From: Naegleria gruberi
Lineage: Eukaryota
DNA: 64,000 bases
Strand: one strand, 5' to 3'
Assembly: GCA_000004985.1 (NCBI GenBank)
Contig: GG738917.1
This document shows positions 274 through 13,986 of the stretch, in pieces. The notes under the pieces are model-generated. The model had not been told where the DNA came from, made no database searches, and saw only the letters and a program-made list of their open reading frames with translations. How positions within the stretch are numbered: position 1 is the stretch's first letter; each line of letters opens with the position of its first letter. The translations under genes and the position numbers were made by a program.

Positions 274-2839
274 ATGTTTAGATTGGTGGCTTTTGTATTT
301 TTATTCATCATCACAATTTCGTTTATACATGCGGCCGATGAAAAGTATACTAAACCAACACTAAACGAAATTACATCCATTCCCAAGTTTACTCCCACTG
401 ATACTAATCCACTACCAAAATCCTATGCTGGAAATCTACCTATCCGAAGTGGAAAAGATCGATTATTCTATTGGTACTTTCCAAAAACTAATTCGAATAT
501 AAATGATGAAAGAAAGGATTTATTAGTCATGTTGAATCGTGGACCAGCTTGTTATTTTGCTGAAATGTTATTCTTGGTAAGTATTTTGATTAGAAAAGTT
601 TTTATTCGAAACTGGTCTTTTCCGAACTATAATTTGATTAATTTATTATTTTAATATTTTTGTAACGATAAATTATGAAAATAGGAAAATGGAGTTTTTC
701 AAATCGATGCAAATCAAGTTTTGACGCTCAATTCAAAATCATTTCATCAATTTGCTCATGTTTTGTACATTGATTCACCTTTGGGAACTGGATTAAGTCA
801 ATTTTCGACTGAAGTTTCGAATTTTGAATCATATGGTAAATTAATGTTTCCTGGAAATAGTTTGAGATTAAAAACAGTGTTTCCAGGTGCCACCAAATAT
901 GTAGTTAAGGATTTACAAGATGCACTCATTGGATTCTTTACTCTTTTCCCTCATTTATCACCAGATAAGAAGGGAAGTACTTTGAATTTCTATACTCCTG
1001 GATATTCTGCCAAGATGATTCCATATTTCATTAAGGAAAATTCAGTTGGTGGCAGTTTCACAACAAAATTCAAGATTTCGAGTATTATTTTGGGAGATCC
1101 ATTCTTACAACCATCACTTCAGTATGCATCTTATGCTAAATTTGGATATGTTTCTGGATTGACAATGTACAGACAGTTTGTTGAGATGAATAGAAAATAT
1201 GAACAATGTTTGACTGATGTTGAGAATGGAAATTACAATAATTATGATAAGGAATGTCACAGTTTGATTGCAGGACTTTTAGAAAATTCTGGAAACGTCT
1301 CACCATTTGATATTCGTGAACAATCTACTCAACAATATGAACAGAGACAAGCCGTTTTGAATACCTATGTCAATAACGATTTATTACCAGCTCTGAGAAG
1401 TTTTGGAAGTATTCCAACCGTAGTTACCATTCCTCATTGTTCCAAGAAGGTGAATGACTTATTCCATGAGGAGTATCATTTGGATGTACCACAAGATGTA
1501 TTTCCATCCATTCTCAATACCAATACACCTATCAATTCAGCTTACAATACTTCCAATGTTAGAATTTTGGTATTCAGTCAACAATTCAACTTGGTGAGTA
1601 ACGTTTTTGGAGTGAATGAAATTTTGAGACAAATGTTGGACTGGGAAGGTCAATTGACTTTTAATAGTTTGAATTCGAGCATCTTTACCATACAGGATAT
1701 GATTGGTGGAAGATTCAAAGCATATGGCGGATTGACTCAAGTAGTTCTCTATAATAACAATTACAAAGAAGGTGTGGAAATTAATCCAAATTTTAATGGA
1801 AACTATAAGATTGGTAATGTGGACATGGTTGCCTCTAGATATGAAATGGTCAATAGATACATTACTAGGGCTGACACTAGCATGCTCATTGATGATAGAG
1901 ATATTTTGTGTGGAGATGCTACCAAGAAGTGCCACTCTGATAGTCAATATCCATGCCCAAGTTTATGCTCCAAGAAGGGAACTTGTAATCTGGAAAAGAA
2001 GAAATGCGACTGTCAACCTGGCTATTATGACAATAATTGTTCAATTGGAAGAGCTAAATATTCATTGAACATTCTTTCAAATTCTGTTTCGTTCAATAAT
2101 TTGTATATTAGTGGAAGAGATACTGTTGTTTTGGAAGTTAACATTCAAGAAAGAACTTCTCTATTGGATCTTTACTTGGAAGTCAATCGTATTGGAAAGT
2201 ATGGAAATCCATTCGTTTTCATGAATGTTTCAACAACAGCTGATGCATTATCGAGTAGAGAATTGAAACTCTTGGCTGTGAAACAAATCGGTTACAGTCT
2301 ATTGAATGGATATAAGAGTACAAGATCAGAAGCTCAATCCAGCCACGAACACTACTTTTACACAGGTTACAAGACTTTCCAATTTTACAACACTTCACAT
2401 GATTCAAAGAAAATTATCGACGCCCAAGATGTTCAAATTATCAGAAATGAATTCCAAACCATTGCCATTGTCATTTACAATGCTGCTGATTTACCAGTCG
2501 AATTCAATGTAACATTAAGTAAGTTTATCAATATTTCACAATTTCTCATTATCAATTTCTTAAATAGAGGCCAACCTTGCAAGTGGAAAGGTTCAAACAG
2601 CTGGCATCTTTTTATCTCTGAGTGTGGTCATGCTAATGGTTATTGTCTTTGAGGTTGTCTTACTCATTCAACGATCCAACAACCGCAAACAATTCATTCT
2701 TCCAAAACTACAGGAAAGACAAGATATTCAAAGAAGAGGACTCTTGGAAAATAACAATTCACTTGTGGACGAGGATGAAAATTCAGAAGTGCTGACAAAT
2801 AACAATGAAGATATTGAATTACGACAACGAAATAATTAA
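274..2839 (+). CDS. Type I membrane protein with a serine carboxypeptidase (S10)-like ectodomain, apparently catalytically inactive, followed by an EGF-like module, a TM segment and a short tail. Three exons: 274-576, 685-2518, 2568-2839.
   Basis: S10 motifs are visible (SYAGNLP, LFYWYF, HVLYIDSPLGTGLSQ). The catalytic GESYAG is replaced by PGYSAK, the oxyanion motif NGGPGCSS is degenerate (NRGPACYF), and the His of GHMVP reads VDMVA. Introns have a GTAAGT donor at 577 with acceptor aatag at 684, and a GTAAGT donor at 2519 with acceptor aaatag at 2567. The exon frames connect. Exon 3 encodes a hydrophobic TM (AGIFLSLSVVMLMVIVFEVVLLI) and a charged tail. There is an N-terminal signal peptide and an EGF-like C-x-C-x-x-G-Y motif. 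Confidence 0.7.
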
Positions 2840-3131: not shown

Positions 3132-4097
3132 ATGTCACAAGTCAAAACTGTTATTCTTTTGCTCTTGATCGCTTTGGTATCCGCCGTTGCTGTCAACGCT
3201 TCCTTGGATACCTTCGACATGTTGAGTGATTTCATCTCCATGTCCGATCTCTCTCCAAGAAGATCTTCTTCTTCCTCTTCTTCCAGCAGAAGACCAACTA
3301 GTTCCTCTTCTTATAGAAGACCAACCAGTTCTTATAACAGAAGACCAACCACCAGTAATAGCAGAAGACCAACTTCTTATAACAGAAGACCAACTACTAC
3401 TACTAACAATAGAAGAAGACCAACTTCAAACACTAGAAGACCAACTAGTAGTAATAATAGAAGACAACCAACTAATAGAAGACCAACTAGACCAACTAGA
3501 ACTAATGTTAGAAATGGTTCTAATAATAATAGAAGAAAGCCAAGTAATAGTGTTAGACCTGGAATGAGTAATCAAAGATTTTCTCAATATAGAAATACTC
3601 AATCCAAACCATATGGTGCTAATACTCAATCTAATCAACCAGCTCGTCAACCAACTCGTCAACCAACAACTGCTCAACAACCAGCTCAACAAAACATTCG
3701 TTCAACTGCTCCTAGCTCACAAGTTGTCCAATCTGCCATGAGCAATGTTAGATCTGCTTCTCACAGCCAATCTCAAGGTAAATGTGCCAAGTATACTGCC
3801 AATGCCATTGAAAAGGCCTTGACTGGTAAGACTTACACAATTAATCGTCCAGGTTCTGCTAAGGATTTCGGTTCTTGGTTACAAAAGATGGGTTATCAAA
3901 AGGTTAGTGGACCAATGCAACCTGGTGATGTCCAAATCTTCCAAGCTATTCCTGGACATCCTGATGGTCACATGCAAATGTTGACTTCTGGTGGTCAATT
4001 TGTTTCTGATTTTAGACAAAGAGATATGTATCCTGGACCAAGTTACAGAAATACTCACCAAGTTCCAGCCAACTACAGATATGTTGGTAATCAATAA
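3132..4097 (+). CDS. Secreted protein with an Arg/Pro/Thr/Ser-rich repetitive linker and a C-terminal CHAP-like (Cys/His papain-fold amidase/peptidase) domain.
   Basis: Signal peptide MSQVKTVILLLLIALVSAVAVNA. Repeats RRPTSS/NRRPTT. C-terminal motifs GKCAKYTANAIEKAL (CHAP Cys motif G-x-C-x-x-[YF]-x-A), MQPGDVQIF (PxPGD[IV]xxF) and GHMQMLTS (GH[VM]xx[VL]). Confidence 0.6.
   Translation: MSQVKTVILLLLIALVSAVAVNASLDTFDMLSDFISMSDLSPRRSSSSSSSSRRPTSSSSYRRPTSSYNRRPTTSNSRRPTSYNRRPTTTTNNRRRPTSNTRRPTSSNNRRQPTNRRPTRPTRTNVRNGSNNNRRKPSNSVRPGMSNQRFSQYRNTQSKPYGANTQSNQPARQPTRQPTTAQQPAQQNIRSTAPSSQVVQSAMSNVRSASHSQSQGKCAKYTANAIEKALTGKTYTINRPGSAKDFGSWLQKMGYQKVSGPMQPGDVQIFQAIPGHPDGHMQMLTSGGQFVSDFRQRDMYPGPSYRNTHQVPANYRYVGNQ
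3283..3530 (+). repeat. Coding tandem repeat of about 12-36 nt units (agaagaccaac[tc]... AGA AGA CCA ACT) encoding RRPTSS/NRRPTT low-complexity.
   Basis: The units agaagaccaac(t/c)agtt... visibly recur within the 3132-4097 CDS. The antisense ORF 3226-3567 is a shadow of this repeat. Confidence 0.7.
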
Positions 4098-6978: not shown

Positions 6979-8007
6979 ATGGTTGAATTAATCAACAAAT
7001 TAAAAATGTCACAAGTTGGTTTTTCATCACTGCCCACGGAAATTTATCTTCAAATTTTGACATTTGCTGTAGACTGGGAGCTATCAGATGTTTTATTGAA
7101 AACATCAAATGCCAAAATAGTTGCTTCCTTCCAATCTATCAACAGGAATATTATCAACAATTCGGAGATGCAAAGTTCGTTTAACAAATTTTGGTGGAAA
7201 TTATTCGAAATTAATTTCGGCATCCCCAAGAAAAATTATCAAAAATTGGATCATTTACGAAAGGAAATTATTGAATCAAAAATCGATTTGAGGAGGATTA
7301 TTTTACAAGCTCATTATACGAAATTCAAATTGTGGAAACAACCTAAATATTATGAAATTCCTGTTGATATTCATGATATGAGAATTGTGTTATTAGGAAG
7401 AGGAGGTGTTGGAAAATCTGCCATCACTATTCAATTTTGTCAACATATTTTCTATCCTGAATACGACCCTAGTATAGAAGATTCGTATAGGAAAACAGCA
7501 ATAGTGGATAACACACAGTTAATATTTGATATACTGGATACAGCTTATTTGGAATATTATTCACCAATGAAGGAACAATACATGCACTATGCTCATGCAT
7601 TTATTGTTGTTTGTGATCTTACAGATAGGCCAACACTCGTGGAGGTCAACTCTGCAGTTAATGATCTAGTTTTAGCACAAGATAGAGAAGTGAATGATAT
7701 GCCTATTGTGTTTGCCTTGAACAAGATTGATTTATTGAACGATTCAGATAAAAAACTAGCCACAGAGGAATTTAGTTCTGAAATTAGGAAAATAGTGAAT
7801 GAATTTTCATTGACGAATTGGAAAATTATGGAATGTAGTGCAAAGCAAAGGCAAAATATTGATGAAATATTTATGGATCTAGCCAGAAGAAGGCAATACT
7901 ATGATATTGTCGATGATTTCACGCTTTTGCAGAATATTACTCTCGAAAATAGTCAAAAGAAATCAATCTCAGAACATTCAAGACACAAGAAATGTTCTCT
8001 AATGTAA
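6979..8007 (+). CDS. F-box-like N-terminus fused to a Ras/Rap-like small GTPase domain, with a C-terminal CAAX box (CSLM).
   Basis: F-box-like LPTEIYLQILTFAV. P-loop GRGGVGKS. YDPSIEDSYRK (switch I, Ras/Rap-like). DILDTAYLEYY in place of DTAGQE. NKID (NKxD). ECSAK (SAK). C-terminal KKCSLM. Confidence 0.7.
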   Translation: MVELINKLKMSQVGFSSLPTEIYLQILTFAVDWELSDVLLKTSNAKIVASFQSINRNIINNSEMQSSFNKFWWKLFEINFGIPKKNYQKLDHLRKEIIESKIDLRRIILQAHYTKFKLWKQPKYYEIPVDIHDMRIVLLGRGGVGKSAITIQFCQHIFYPEYDPSIEDSYRKTAIVDNTQLIFDILDTAYLEYYSPMKEQYMHYAHAFIVVCDLTDRPTLVEVNSAVNDLVLAQDREVNDMPIVFALNKIDLLNDSDKKLATEEFSSEIRKIVNEFSLTNWKIMECSAKQRQNIDEIFMDLARRRQYYDIVDDFTLLQNITLENSQKKSISEHSRHKKCSLM

Positions 8008-8347: not shown

Positions 8348-10009
8348 ATGTCAAAACGAACACTGGAAACTCTTTATGAGGATGATGAGATTTCCATTGT
8401 TGCTCAACCTCCTCCGATCAAGGAAATTAAATTATCATCAAATATTAAAACCAAATTCCAAGAACTTCCCGACGAATTAATTAAATTAATATTAAATTTC
8501 ATACCGGACCAATATATTATTGCCTCCACTTGTAGAATATCCAAAGAATGGTATGAAATCTGTTCGAATGGTTCTCTCCAATTCCGACTCGATTATTCAA
8601 TAAGAAGGATCAAGAGATTGGATTTGGTAAAATTATGTGATTGTCCAATGATGAGAAATTTAGTTTATTTAAATTTGAATAATAATCAATTGCCACAACG
8701 ATATGTTGCAATGATTGGAGGGAGCGAATATTTGACTAATTTGGAAGAATTGGAATTGAACAAGTCAAAACTAAAGTTTAAAGCTGTGAGCTCCTTGGTG
8801 AAGAGCAAATTTGCAAAAACTATCAAAAAGATTTCATTTGATAGTTTTATAACAATGAATCCAGATTTGCTAATTAAATGTGTTGAGGATACTGTGGAAT
8901 CAACTGGAAATTTGTTTTGGTATTACTTTCTTGCTGGATATTTTGAGAATGTTGATTGCGCAGAATTGTCAGAGGAATATTTGAGGAAATCAGCAAATCT
9001 TGGTTATGTACAATCACAGATTGAGTATGGTCTTTTAAAAGTAAAAGATAATCAAGAAGAAGCTCTGATATGGTTAAAAAAGGCAGCAGAATTTGGAGAT
9101 TCCAATGCTCAGATATATCTTTCTGAATTATATGGAAATAGAGGAGAAAATGAGTTATCTTTCAAGTGGCTATTGACAGCTGCAGAACAAGGTAATACTA
9201 AAGCGTTCTATAATTTGGGGTTTTATTATAGAGAGGGCACTGGTGTGAAGATGGATTATGAGAAGGCACTCCACTGGTTTTTGAAAGCTGAGGAACATGG
9301 CGATCTCAATGCCATTTGTGTTATCGGTCACATGTATGGTATAGGACAGGGAGTAGAAGTGAATGAAGAAAAATCAACAGAGCTTACCTTAAGAGCTGCC
9401 ATGCGGGGAGACTCTTCCTCGCAGTACAATTTGGGTGTTAAATATTATCATGGCACTGGGACAGAAAGAGATTTGGAAAAGTCATTCAATTGGTTTCTCA
9501 ATGCTGCTAATGCTGACGAACCACTCGCTCAAAAAAGGGTAGGTTGCATGTTTTCTTCAGGGGAAGGTGTTGAGCAAGATATAGATCGAGCCATGTTTTG
9601 GCTTAAAGAGGCGTGTGATCAAGGAGATCATTCATGTACCATTCTCTTTGGAATTATGCACTACTTTGGATTACATGATTGTGAACTAGATTTGGAAAAA
9701 AGTAGGCAATTTTTGGGAAAATTAGGCACTCAATTCGATGACAGATTTCTCAGTAAGGTAAATTCAAGCTGTTGTTGCAATGAATGTTTTGTGGAAGATT
9801 TTAATGGATTTAACTATGAATGTGCTAATTTATCATGTGATTTTGATTTATGCCAACGATGTTACGAGAATGGAGCTAAATGCAACAAATGTGGAAACTC
9901 AAAATTTGCCAAACACCACGCTTTACAACTTTTTGTTCCTTTGCTAAAGCAGTTAAATGAAAAACCAAAGCACACAAAATTGGAAACATTGATCAAACTC
10001 CTTGAATAA
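8348..10009 (+). CDS. F-box protein with an LRR-like segment, Sel1/TPR-like repeats and a C-terminal ZZ-type zinc finger.
   Basis: F-box LPDELIKLILNFIPD...W. Repeated A-x-x-[WY]-[LF]-x-x-A-A-E-x-G motifs (Sel1-like). C-terminal Cys/His cluster CANLSCDFDLCQRCYENGAKCNKCG..HH (ZZ-like). Confidence 0.7.
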   Translation: MSKRTLETLYEDDEISIVAQPPPIKEIKLSSNIKTKFQELPDELIKLILNFIPDQYIIASTCRISKEWYEICSNGSLQFRLDYSIRRIKRLDLVKLCDCPMMRNLVYLNLNNNQLPQRYVAMIGGSEYLTNLEELELNKSKLKFKAVSSLVKSKFAKTIKKISFDSFITMNPDLLIKCVEDTVESTGNLFWYYFLAGYFENVDCAELSEEYLRKSANLGYVQSQIEYGLLKVKDNQEEALIWLKKAAEFGDSNAQIYLSELYGNRGENELSFKWLLTAAEQGNTKAFYNLGFYYREGTGVKMDYEKALHWFLKAEEHGDLNAICVIGHMYGIGQGVEVNEEKSTELTLRAAMRGDSSSQYNLGVKYYHGTGTERDLEKSFNWFLNAANADEPLAQKRVGCMFSSGEGVEQDIDRAMFWLKEACDQGDHSCTILFGIMHYFGLHDCELDLEKSRQFLGKLGTQFDDRFLSKVNSSCCCNECFVEDFNGFNYECANLSCDFDLCQRCYENGAKCNKCGNSKFAKHHALQLFVPLLKQLNEKPKHTKLETLIKLLE

Positions 10010-10770: not shown

Positions 10771-13700
10771 ATGATAAGTAAGTTTGGTATGACCTTCACA
10801 AATTCTAAAATTCCAGAAGAGCTTTTAATTTTGGTGCTGTCAGTCACTTTCGTTCTCTGCTTTGCAAGTGTCAGCGAAGGCAGAGGACCAAAAGCATGTG
10901 CAGATTTGAGTACATTACCAGCTGGTTGTACTCAAAAATCTAGCAAAGATTATTCAGGTACTCTAGCAACATCAACAGGTCCTTTGATGGGAATGGCGGC
11001 TGACTTGTCTGCAAATATTTATGTCATCCAAAACGCTTTCAACTCCTTTAAGACAAACAACTTGGCAACTGCTACATTGAACAAGGGTATTATTTCAAAG
11101 TACTCAGCTGATAAGGGTGTTCTTGCTTGGGAAAAGTTGACATGTGGTTCAGGAAATACTTTCTTTAGCAATATTGTTGCTACTACTTCTCAAGTTAACA
11201 TTGGCGGTACTATTGAAAATGTAACCAATCCATCTGATTTGTGTATCTTTAACGCTGTAAGTGGATCCAATACGAGAGAATTGGACGGAAGAAATCTTTC
11301 GTTCTTTGTTTCGTTAGATTCTTCCTCAGGTATTGTTCGTTTTGTCAAATCACTCGATGTTTACAATGGCTCCACCATTCTTTCAATGACTTCTGATGCT
11401 AGCGACAATGTTATCATTGCACAAAAAGTTAAGAAATATGGTAGTGGTGTTATTTCTATGGATGGTATCACAGTTACTCTTCCAAACAATGATGTTAGCA
11501 ATGTGGTAATTTCTGAATTCTCCAACGTTGATGGTAATTTAAGATGGTCATCCGTTTTGTGTGAAGATCCATCAAGTGAAGAGGCATGTCAAGTTATTTC
11601 CATTCATTCCTCTTATGGAGTTGATGATAATGTTCTGATTGTTTTATCTGTGAAGGGAAGTGTAGTTTTGAAAAATTTTGGTAAAATATCATCCCAAGTT
11701 AATATGGCTAATATCTTCCTTGTTGGTTTGTCAAAGAATGGGCAAAAGGTCAGATTTGCAAAGACGTTGAGTTATAGTTTAACTATTGATATTACAAATG
11801 TCAAAGCAACTATTAATCAAGCTGGAGAAATGGTTTTAGCACTAGCTTGTTCTGATAATTGTATTATCAATCAAGAAATGGTAAATCCTGGTATCTACCT
11901 CATTCAATTTAACATGTTTAAACTCTCAATTGACTATGTTAAATTATTTGTACCAATATCTAACCTTGATACTGTTCAAGTTGCATCAATTGCAATCGAT
12001 GCCGCTGGTAATCCATATACCATTATCAAATCTTTGTCCACTCCCCAAATTACCATCTATGACAGTGATTCTAGAAAGTCAACCTTTGTTTCTCCAAATG
12101 TTCTTCTAGTGAAACATACAGCAAGTTCTGGATCAGTTTACTGGGCACAACCTATTGTCACTTTCTCTACTGTTAGCAAGCTGTTCATTCCAAATATGTT
12201 CAGAAGTGATTCTTATGTTTATACTTTCCCAACTATTCCAGTTGTTTATCAAGATAACAATCAAGTCAACTTGAACACATTCCAACCATGTTTGGGCACG
12301 GTTTCAAAGCTATCAACATCATATTTCGTTGGTGGTTCTGGAGGTGATCATTCATTTTCAACAGATCAGAAAGTCAAATCTATTGCTTGTTATGGTGAAG
12401 GAACAGTGAAAGGAATTGTTTTTAATTATTTTGTTGGTGAAGGTTTTAAAGCAGGAACAACAGAGGGAACCACAAAAACCATTATCTTTGATCCAGATGA
12501 GTACATTACAGAACTAGAGATGAGTGTTGATAGAGGAACATTTATAACCAACGTTGGTTATATCAGAATCAAGACAGACAGACAACAATTTACATTTGGA
12601 CAAAAGAGGTCGTCAAGTAACTACAATTACATTCTGGATAATGATAAGACTGTTATTGCGTGGTCTATCAAGTCAGGAACTCATGTTGATTCAATTACAG
12701 CATTTTTAGGAGATAGAGCCAACGGTTATCCACTTTATTGTGATTGTAAGTCAGGTTTTGAAGGTTCTACGTGTGAAAGAACTCAATGCTATGGTCAAGA
12801 TGCCACTGCCACAGGAGTTGTTTGTTCAGGAAAGGGCTCATGTTCAGGTCCAAACAGTTGTGCCTGTAATCTTGGATACAGCGGTCATGCCTGTATTGAT
12901 GTTAATTATTGTAACAATAATAGCTCATTGGCAGATCCATTGTTGTGTGGCACTGGTACTTGTAAGAGTGATTTGTGTGACTGTAAACCTGGGTTTTATG
13001 GCGAAAGATGTCAATATTGGGATTGTTATGGAATTCAACAAACAAACACTTCATATGCTTGTAGTGCTAATGGACAATGCCAATCTCCAAACAATTGTCA
13101 ATGCTATGATTATACCAAATATGGAGGTTTACAATGCCAACTCCCTATTTGTAATTTCTTACTTTCAAATCATTCAGATGTATGTACTGGACATGGCATT
13201 TGTACAGCTCCGGAAAAATGTGCATGTGAACCAAATTATTTGGGTCAATATTGTGAAGAATTCTCTTGTTTTGGAATTGAAAGAAATTCCTCAAATGTCT
13301 GTAATACTCGTGGTAAATGTATTGGTATTAATCAATGTAAATGCACTCTACCATACTATGGAAATGAATGTCAACTCTATGATTGCCATGGAGTAGTATA
13401 TAATGATAATAATGTCTGTTCTTCACATGGTCAATGTGGTTCACCAAATAATTGTACATGTCAGGCAGGTTATTTTTCAAATGATTGCAGTTTATATCAA
13501 TGTAGTGGTAAATTAATGAACGATTCGAGTGTCTGTTCTGGAAGAGGTACTTGTCAATCACCTAATAATTGCTCCTGTGTTGAAGGACATTCTGGTCAAG
13601 TGTGTGAAAATTACTATTGTTTCAATGTTTTTAAAGGAAATTCTTCAGTTTGCTCAGGTAATGGTAATTGTATTTCATCCAATAATTGCCAATGCAAATA

Positions 13701-13986
13701 TAATTTCAATGGAACAAATTGTGAAACATGTGCCAATAACTATTTTGGCAAACGCTGTACTAATAGCATCCCCAATAGAAGAGCACTCATGACATCCACC
13801 ACTTCAGTAGAAATCGAGTTCTTCTCTCCAAAATATTTTGCAACCAACAGTCAAACTACAATTAGTTGTGATAATATACTGTCCCCTGCATCTATCACTA
13901 AATATGTAGAATTGGACTTTGTAGACCAAAATTACTTTCCACTTTTGCAGATTCTAATGGAAACTATCAATATAGATTCACTATAA
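10771..13986 (+). CDS. 5' portion of a very large secreted/transmembrane protein: signal peptide, jacalin-like lectin domain, and about 12 tenascin/laminin-type EGF modules.
   Basis: Signal peptide MTFTNSKIPEELLILVLSVTFVLCFASVSEG. Jacalin-like segment GGSGGDHSF...IVFNYFVGEGF...FDPDEYITELEMSVDRGTFITNVGYIRIKTD...FTFGQ. Repeated C-x-C-x(2)-G-[YF]-x-G-x-x-C EGF units from 12740-13750. The antisense ORF 12740-13396 is a shadow. Confidence 0.7.
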   Translation: MISKFGMTFTNSKIPEELLILVLSVTFVLCFASVSEGRGPKACADLSTLPAGCTQKSSKDYSGTLATSTGPLMGMAADLSANIYVIQNAFNSFKTNNLATATLNKGIISKYSADKGVLAWEKLTCGSGNTFFSNIVATTSQVNIGGTIENVTNPSDLCIFNAVSGSNTRELDGRNLSFFVSLDSSSGIVRFVKSLDVYNGSTILSMTSDASDNVIIAQKVKKYGSGVISMDGITVTLPNNDVSNVVISEFSNVDGNLRWSSVLCEDPSSEEACQVISIHSSYGVDDNVLIVLSVKGSVVLKNFGKISSQVNMANIFLVGLSKNGQKVRFAKTLSYSLTIDITNVKATINQAGEMVLALACSDNCIINQEMVNPGIYLIQFNMFKLSIDYVKLFVPISNLDTVQVASIAIDAAGNPYTIIKSLSTPQITIYDSDSRKSTFVSPNVLLVKHTASSGSVYWAQPIVTFSTVSKLFIPNMFRSDSYVYTFPTIPVVYQDNNQVNLNTFQPCLGTVSKLSTSYFVGGSGGDHSFSTDQKVKSIACYGEGTVKGIVFNYFVGEGFKAGTTEGTTKTIIFDPDEYITELEMSVDRGTFITNVGYIRIKTDRQQFTFGQKRSSSNYNYILDNDKTVIAWSIKSGTHVDSITAFLGDRANGYPLYCDCKSGFEGSTCERTQCYGQDATATGVVCSGKGSCSGPNSCACNLGYSGHACIDVNYCNNNSSLADPLLCGTGTCKSDLCDCKPGFYGERCQYWDCYGIQQTNTSYACSANGQCQSPNNCQCYDYTKYGGLQCQLPICNFLLSNHSDVCTGHGICTAPEKCACEPNYLGQYCEEFSCFGIERNSSNVCNTRGKCIGINQCKCTLPYYGNECQLYDCHGVVYNDNNVCSSHGQCGSPNNCTCQAGYFSNDCSLYQCSGKLMNDSSVCSGRGTCQSPNNCSCVEGHSGQVCENYYCFNVFKGNSSVCSGNGNCISSNNCQCKYNFNGTNCETCANNYFGKRCTNSIPNRRALMTSTTSVEIEFFSPKYFATNSQTTISCDNILSPASITKYVELDFVDQNYFPLLQILMETINIDSL

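Follow-up and report, generated by a model that had tools for sequence, protein, structure and literature searches.

How does a gene for what looks like a bacterial cell-wall amidase come to reside in the genome of an amoeba, and what does the amoeba use it for? This question is raised by the gene at positions 3132 to 4097 of a 64-kb stretch of Naegleria gruberi DNA (64,000 nucleotides of contig GG738917.1; hereafter the window), which a preliminary description, made from the letters alone, had read as an intronless gene for a secreted CHAP-domain protein with a repetitive basic linker, possibly an antibacterial lysin acquired horizontally. The core of that reading withstood all tests applied: judged from its sequence, the gene probably encodes a papain-like amidase of bacterial descent that is secreted, attacks cell walls and serves against bacteria in a bacterivorous amoeba-like eukaryote. 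Taking the whole analysis together, we consider it very likely that the protein is a domesticated bacterial toxin of the Tae3 type (type VI secretion amidase effector family 3), taken up by an ancestor of Naegleria and Willaertia and now serving the amoeba as a secreted peptidoglycan hydrolase.

The product of the open reading frame (ORF) is an exact match to N. gruberi XP_002670238.1 (EFC37494.1, NAEGRDRAFT_74701; UniProt D2W021), encoded on a 223-kb scaffold, and the coding sequence (CDS) is indeed a single exon. The family assignment comes from its C-terminal part, which is laid out as follows:

3132..4097, plus strand: complete single-exon CDS NAEGRDRAFT_74701, 321 amino acids (aa) plus stop, an uninterrupted ORF from ATG to TAA.
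3732..4094, plus strand: Tae3-type papain-like amidase domain of the CHAP/NlpC-P60 superfamily, aa 201-321, assigned by sequence search, family profile and predicted fold.
3783..3785, plus strand: codon TGT of Cys218, the predicted nucleophile (equivalent to Tae3 C23 in the alignment to 4HZ9) and the sole Cys of the protein.
3969..3971, plus strand: codon CAC of His280, the predicted catalytic base (equivalent to Tae3 H81 in the alignment to 4HZ9).
4005..4007, plus strand: codon TCT of Ser292, predicted to complete the triad, in an invariant S-D-F-x-Q motif (aligned as VSDF versus ISDF).

When the whole protein was searched against the PDB with phmmer, the sole significant match was 4hz9_A (E 6e-18; aa 208-317 aligned to residues 13-118 of the chain). 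The 4HZ9 structure contains Tae3 of Ralstonia pickettii, with catalytic residues C23 and H81, together with the immunity protein Tai3 (PMC11796386). Tae3 has an unusual Cys-His-Ser triad (PMC10318531), and the bond cut by Tae2 and Tae3 is the cross-link of peptidoglycan between meso-diaminopimelic acid and D-Ala (mDAP-D-Ala; PMC3695027). In the alignment with 4HZ9, C218 falls on C23, H280 of the GHM motif falls on H81 and VSDF falls on ISDF; the Cys and His of the early motifs do, therefore, sit at catalytic positions, and Cys218-His280-Ser292 is the predicted triad, the equivalence of the Ser resting on the sequence alignment. A profile built from 38 family sequences retrieves 4HZ9 at E 1.5e-43, the next matches being CHAP endolysins at E 1e-5 or weaker.

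An exhaustive HMMER search returned 917 homologues at E ≤ 1e-3, 143 of which were aligned for the analysis of conservation. The three motifs that had first drawn attention to the ORF (GKCAKYTA, aa 216-223; PGDVQIF, aa 264-270; GHMQML, aa 279-284) are present in the order described and lie on the most conserved columns of the family. G279, H280 and S292 are invariant (143/143), C218 and G265 are found in 142 of the 143 sequences and D266 in 141, while A243, D293 and Q296 are each present in 141 or more; all family-conserved residues are kept in the N. gruberi protein. An AlphaFold2 model of aa 192-321 (predicted local distance difference test score, pLDDT, 95.5; predicted template modelling score, pTM, 0.90) has the Tae3 chains as its top Foldseek matches in the PDB (4hz9_A: template modelling score, TM, 0.80/0.88, root-mean-square deviation 2.2 Å, 38% identity), with other CHAP and NlpC/P60 hydrolases much more distant. 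Judged from this predicted structure, the domain has the same fold as Tae3. We conclude that the domain belongs to the Tae3 family and that the label 'CHAP' is correct at the superfamily (clan) level only. In the search for NlpC/P60, which had also been suggested as a check, the protein has no match to Pfam NLPC_P60 (PF00877), which gives weak matches in 5 of the 38 family members. No phage family in PHROGs matches the domain at E ≤ 0.01, and profile searches with NCBIfam and PADLOC were without meaningful match.

The gene is surrounded by the following genes, among which there is also an unannotated ORF:

844..2652, possibly with upstream exons from about 274, plus strand: S10 serine carboxypeptidase (Pfam E 9e-14), the immediate upstream neighbour.
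6979..8007: Ras-family GTPase.
8348..10009: F-box/Sel1 protein.
10771..13986, plus strand: large EGF/jacalin protein with a jacalin-like lectin domain and many EGF/teneurin-type repeats.

The carboxypeptidase has a Cys-rich, EGF-like C-terminal region and is a probable secreted or lysosomal hydrolase adjoining the lysin gene; the repeats of the EGF/jacalin protein also match a gene in the Naegleria lovaniensis locus L001. Neither a tai3 immunity gene nor a type VI secretion system (T6SS) is found near the Tae3-type gene, whose neighbours are eukaryotic. Since both the host and the neighbours are eukaryotic, we regard the gene as a descendant of the Tae family and not as a bona fide T6SS effector. 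Its G+C content at third codon positions (GC3) is 0.24, compared with 0.28 for 20 other ORFs of the window, and it prefers the host codons AGA, CCA, CAA and GGT/GCT with a stronger bias (effective number of codons 33 versus about 41). The repeat region had been described as differing in composition, and it is indeed biased, but the bias is one of amino acids (AGA, CCA and ACT codons) and not a foreign signature. A near-identical copy, NAEGRDRAFT_76059 (P0262; 319 of 321 residues identical, 99%), with the same repeat number, lies on another scaffold of 97.6 kb and is probably the allele of the other haplotype and not a recent duplication; a tblastn search of the 64-kb window with the domain found no second copy. 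The gene is thus truly eukaryotic and fully ameliorated. Of the horizontal acquisition proposed at the outset, the bacterial origin is supported, while a recent or compositionally foreign acquisition does not, given the host-like codons and the relatives in other Naegleria and in Willaertia.

These relatives, which had been suggested as a check, comprise two genes in N. lovaniensis, homologues in N. fowleri and Willaertia magna, and a shorter N. gruberi paralogue, NAEGRDRAFT_68243; the Willaertia gene sits among Gpi16, UCH and NADAR genes. In a neighbour-joining (NJ) tree, the window gene groups with metagenomic P0002 and P0007 (loci L002 and L003) and with N. lovaniensis P0008 at a bootstrap of 98% (clade A). 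The closest N. lovaniensis gene, the clade A member at L001:10001-10775, carries a 127-nt intron (GTAAGT...TAG) that interrupts the catalytic domain between VQVYG and AIKGHPNGH. Clade A proteins share a 3-residue insertion (K-T-Y-T region, aa 234-236) and have T222 in place of V, A223 in place of R and F290 in place of W. The ratio of nonsynonymous to synonymous substitution rates (dN/dS) of the catalytic domain is 0.17-0.40 among four clade A genes (Nei-Gojobori; dS is near saturation in the deeper pairs), showing that the domain is under purifying selection.

A second heterolobosean group, or clade B (NAEGRDRAFT_68243, N. fowleri, N. lovaniensis 2530 and Willaertia), is poorly resolved, with a bootstrap of 13-26%, and the monophyly of clades A and B together is unsupported in the NJ tree (0% bootstrap); one transfer and two are therefore indistinguishable. 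The window shows no synteny with locus L001 of N. lovaniensis, the other matches being only to repeat and domain sequences, and positional orthology is therefore unsupported. Some of the related gene models call for comment. In L003 (a contig of JGI 3300002220), a frame change or an intron at about 400-900 is needed to join the parts: frame 2 encodes the signal peptide, acidic motif and GRSSS repeats and frame 0 the catalytic part, so that the called protein P0007 starts in an out-of-frame stretch. The N-termini of N. fowleri P0156 and P0009 (VVLVVVVAV..., EEDNLTEED...) resemble the out-of-frame GGRRQSY repeat of P0010 and P0155, which suggests that both are mis-annotated gene models. Eukaryote-labelled members of the Tae3 family also occur outside Heterolobosea, namely P0013 (Chlamydomonas incerta KAG2433258) and P0162 (the rotifer Didymodactylos carnosus), and metagenomic P0011, a eukaryote-like member, has a signal peptide and an acidic Pro-rich linker.

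Most homologues are bacterial, e.g. from Paraburkholderia, Caballeronia, Rugamonas, Stigmatella, Polyangium, Chryseobacterium and Erwinia, and many of these are bare domains of about 120 aa; fusions to PG_binding_1 occur in some. Two close non-heterolobosean relatives, P0003 and P0165 (53% and 44% identity to the N. gruberi domain, respectively), carry a PAAR-like C-terminal tail. Both are encoded on bacterial metagenomic contigs:

L005:8001-8636: P0165 gene, near a DUF2169 gene and a PAAR-RHS toxin gene.
L007:8001-8639: P0003 gene, near an SpvB/RHS toxin with a Gln_amidase domain.

The combination of DUF2169 and PAAR-RHS genes near P0165 is a typical T6SS auxiliary module.

The N-terminal part of the N. 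gruberi protein consists of four elements:

3132..3200, plus strand: predicted endoplasmic reticulum (ER) signal peptide, aa 1-23 (MSQVKTVILLLLIALVSAVAVNA), probably cleaved after VNA (hydropathy and -3/-1 rule).
3201..3251, plus strand: short acidic motif, aa 24-40 (SLDTFDMLSDFISMSDL), net charge -4.
3255..3551, plus strand: polycationic Ser/Thr/Pro/Asn repeat, aa 42-140, with about ten RRPT(S/T)-type units, net charge +27 and zero acidic residues.
3552..3731, plus strand: Gln/Pro-rich basic spacer, aa 141-200, recognised by composition, with QPTRQPT and QQPA mini-repeats and period-12 arrays in Tandem Repeats Finder (TRF).

The N-terminus (MSQVK with K5, a 16-residue hydrophobic core, then V-N-A at -3 to -1) fits the classical rules of hydropathy and -3/-1 residues by which the signal peptide was judged, and the signal peptide of the preliminary description is in this sense predicted by rule. 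Equivalent signal-peptide-like N-termini are present in P0008, P0012 (the N. gruberi paralogue), P0179 and L003. In clade A the signal peptide is directly followed by an acidic motif, D-x-F-D-x-L-x-D-[FY]-[IL]-x-[LM]-[SA]-D, the N. gruberi sequence having its counterparts in P0008 of N. lovaniensis (DIFDSLSDFISLSD) and in the metagenomic locus L003 (DMFDLLGDYLELAD); it is possibly a pro-peptide or a sorting motif. The repetitive basic Ser/Thr/Pro linker is as first described: a regular-expression count gives ten RR(K/Q)P(T/S) units, TRF finds tandem arrays of periods 24 and 51 at 3287-3473 and of period 12 at 3635-3692, and aa 41-200 contain 34 basic and 0 acidic residues (net charge +34). The linker is 33% Ser/Thr and 11% Pro.

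Across clade A the region after the acidic motif is a Ser/Thr-rich basic low-complexity sequence whose repeat unit is species-specific. The linkers of the window protein and its relatives compare as follows:

N. gruberi window protein: RRPTSS repeat, linker net charge about +32.
L002 (metagenomic, partial): RSSS and TRN repeats, linker net charge +48.
L003 (metagenomic): GRSSS repeats.
N. lovaniensis P0008 (clade A): S/T/K repeats, linker net charge +2.
N. lovaniensis P0155 (second group): GGRRQSY repeats, linker net charge +38.
Willaertia: HRPRP repeats, linker net charge +18.
N. gruberi NAEGRDRAFT_68243: linker net charge -7.

A cationic linker is, then, recurrent in heteroloboseans, where it has arisen from different repeat units, but it is not universal.

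If the protein is a domesticated Tae3-type toxin, its most likely function, once it has been secreted or has reached the phagosome, is to cut cross-links in the peptidoglycan of prey bacteria. The signal peptide would route the protein into the secretory or endolysosomal pathway, and it would arrive in the medium or in the food vacuole. There, the Tae3-type domain with its Cys218-His280-Ser292 triad would break an amide bond within the peptide moiety of peptidoglycan, and this cleavage would weaken and lyse prey or competitor bacteria. The Arg-rich Ser/Thr/Pro linker would act as a disordered, fast-evolving spacer, which, speculatively, may be O-glycosylated and may hold the enzyme on anionic bacterial envelopes.

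Several points weigh against this reading. Domesticated amidase effectors (Dae), the products of tae-family genes resident in eukaryotes, are unable to cross the Gram-negative outer membrane alone (bioRxiv 10.1101/2020.04.10.036376), so that further factors would be required if Gram-negative prey were to be killed from outside. The proposed bond specificity is carried over from a bacterial enzyme of about 40% identity, and specificity can drift after transfer, as in tick Dae2 (bioRxiv 10.1101/2020.04.10.036376). As for the CHAP domain of the preliminary description, the superfamily stands, but against Pfam CHAP (PF05257) the whole protein scores 19.3 bits and the isolated domain 21.4 bits, both below the gathering cut-off of 26 bits, so that strictly there is no CHAP hit and Tae3 takes its place; 16 of the 38 family members do match this profile at E ≤ 0.01 (best 1.6e-7). 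Many bacterial members of the family instead contain PG_binding_1 domains, which makes the donor ambiguous between a T6SS effector and another secreted hydrolase, and the deep nodes of the tree are without support, so the donor lineage is not indicated. Finally, the 16-residue hydrophobic core could be a signal anchor.

The same body of evidence bears on three other explanations. A digestive or peptidoglycan-fragment-processing enzyme, which would degrade dead bacteria in phagolysosomes or trim muropeptides instead of killing, with the linker as a mucin-like glycosylated shield against proteases, is in our view unlikely. Naegleria feeds by phagocytosis, the S10 serine carboxypeptidase encoded just upstream is of a typically lysosomal kind, and the Ser/Thr and Pro content of the linker is typical of O-glycosylated stalks, all of which would suit such a role, as would the inability of Dae enzymes to pass outer membranes unaided (bioRxiv 10.1101/2020.04.10.036376). 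However, a strongly cationic, acid-free linker is atypical of mucin stalks, and the proposal departs from that of a domesticated antibacterial hydrolase in physiological emphasis only. We think it quite improbable that the catalytic domain now acts on an endogenous substrate, without an antibacterial role, in place of peptidoglycan, be it a glycoprotein of the cyst wall or surface, an amide of the gamma-glutamyl or glutathionyl type (like that cut by the CHAP-domain glutathionylspermidine amidases) or a protein to be processed. The CHAP superfamily does include non-peptidoglycan amidases, the glutathionylspermidine (Gsp) amidase and the amidase domain of trypanothione synthetase are among the weak Foldseek matches, and the insertion at aa 234-236 and the unusual T222, A223 and F290 of clade A would be compatible with a changed substrate. 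What speaks against such a change is that the protein keeps all residues that are invariant in the family, the SDFxQ motif among them; moreover, the peptidoglycan-specific Tae3 is by far the best structural match, the secretory architecture and bacterivorous lifestyle suit a peptidoglycan target, and the characterised Dae2 and Dae4 kept peptidoglycan hydrolysis (PMC8713801; bioRxiv 10.1101/2020.04.10.036376).

To bacterial contamination, an assembly artefact or a decaying pseudogene we assign a negligible probability, even though the closest characterised relatives are all bacterial and the window copy is intronless. The eukaryotic genes on both flanks on a 223-kb scaffold, the host-like codon usage, the second near-identical copy on another scaffold and the homologues in three other heterolobosean genomes, one with a spliceosomal intron, together with the intact frame and a dN/dS of about 0.2, exclude contamination and a pseudogene.

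Returning to the domesticated Tae3-type hydrolase, one may ask whether its Arg-rich, acid-free linker is more than a spacer. It might be a functional module that binds lipopolysaccharide or teichoic acids and destabilises the outer membrane, opening the peptidoglycan of Gram-negative bacteria from outside. This is a tentative proposal that we judge rather doubtful; a polycationic envelope-binding tail is an attractive hypothesis because Dae2 cannot cross the Gram-negative outer membrane alone, and, if true, it would solve the very barrier noted for tick Dae2. Engineered endolysins fused to polycations ('Artilysins') offer a parallel, since these enzymes reach peptidoglycan from outside, as proposed here for the amidase. 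Other possibilities are that the RR pairs serve as dibasic processing sites for freeing the catalytic domain, or that the linker is an O-glycosylated spacer. In the literature searched we found no description of a long polycationic repeat linker for Dae proteins. Such a naturally polycationic linker could interest lysin engineers, and it is the only unexplored feature of the gene.

The system closest in sequence and predicted fold is Tae3 of R. pickettii (4HZ9/4HZB), which the N. gruberi domain resembles over its whole length (about 38-40% identity), in predicted fold and in the aligned Cys, His and Ser of SDF. The two differ in their setting: Tae3 consists of the domain alone (about 120-140 aa), is injected by the T6SS into rival Gram-negative cells and is encoded beside tai3, whereas the N. 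gruberi protein has a predicted eukaryotic signal peptide, a 180-aa N-terminal extension and eukaryotic neighbours. CHAP endolysins (LysK CHAPK, 4CSH; Ly7917, 5D74; Lys2972, 8TW1) share the superfamily fold and the Cys-His chemistry but are remote from the domain, with profile E-values of 1e-5 to 0.2 and TM of about 0.35-0.6. The NlpC/P60 peptidoglycan hydrolases of Trichomonas vaginalis were laterally acquired and are used against bacteria (PMC6299479; PDB 6BIQ). They are likewise papain-like enzymes in a protist host, with a weak structural match (Foldseek E 0.32), but belong to another family with bacterial SH3 domains, act as DL-endopeptidases and represent an independent acquisition in another host lineage.

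It is with the Dae proteins that the comparison carries furthest. These gained eukaryotic secretion signals and kept peptidoglycan degradation, and nvDae4 kills Gram-positive bacteria (PMC8713801); tick Dae2 cleaves peptidoglycan and also kills Gram-positive bacteria (bioRxiv 10.1101/2020.04.10.036376). Like Dae2 of ticks and mites and Dae4 of Nematostella and others, the N. gruberi gene is a tae-family gene in a eukaryote and under purifying selection, and the N-terminus of its product would fit a secretion signal; unlike them, it belongs to family 3 and not to family 2 or 4, and its host is a free-living bacterivorous protist and not an immune-equipped animal. As far as its sequence tells, the gene fits the Dae class, being resident in a eukaryote and kept by selection, with an N-terminus that follows the signal-peptide rules. 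Chou et al. (2015) are said to have described a class of tae genes transferred to eukaryotes, reportedly including dae3 genes in some of them. An open-access full-text search found no paper linking Naegleria to amidase effectors or citing the locus tags. The public genome sequence of N. gruberi has contained the gene since 2010, and a search with Tae3 retrieves it readily. It is a new or at most barely documented Dae-type gene, which may prove to be already listed by Chou et al. (2015).

The gene offers a candidate for studying how amoebae lyse their prey, and its N. fowleri relatives could inform on the ecology of that species. It confirms the established Dae principle and does not open a new one. 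With the Naegleria and Willaertia genes, the bacteria-grazing, free-living Heterolobosea join the eukaryotes with captured toxins of interbacterial warfare, contributing a set of at least two paralogous groups with one intron gain, in a setting that is one of feeding and not of animal immunity.

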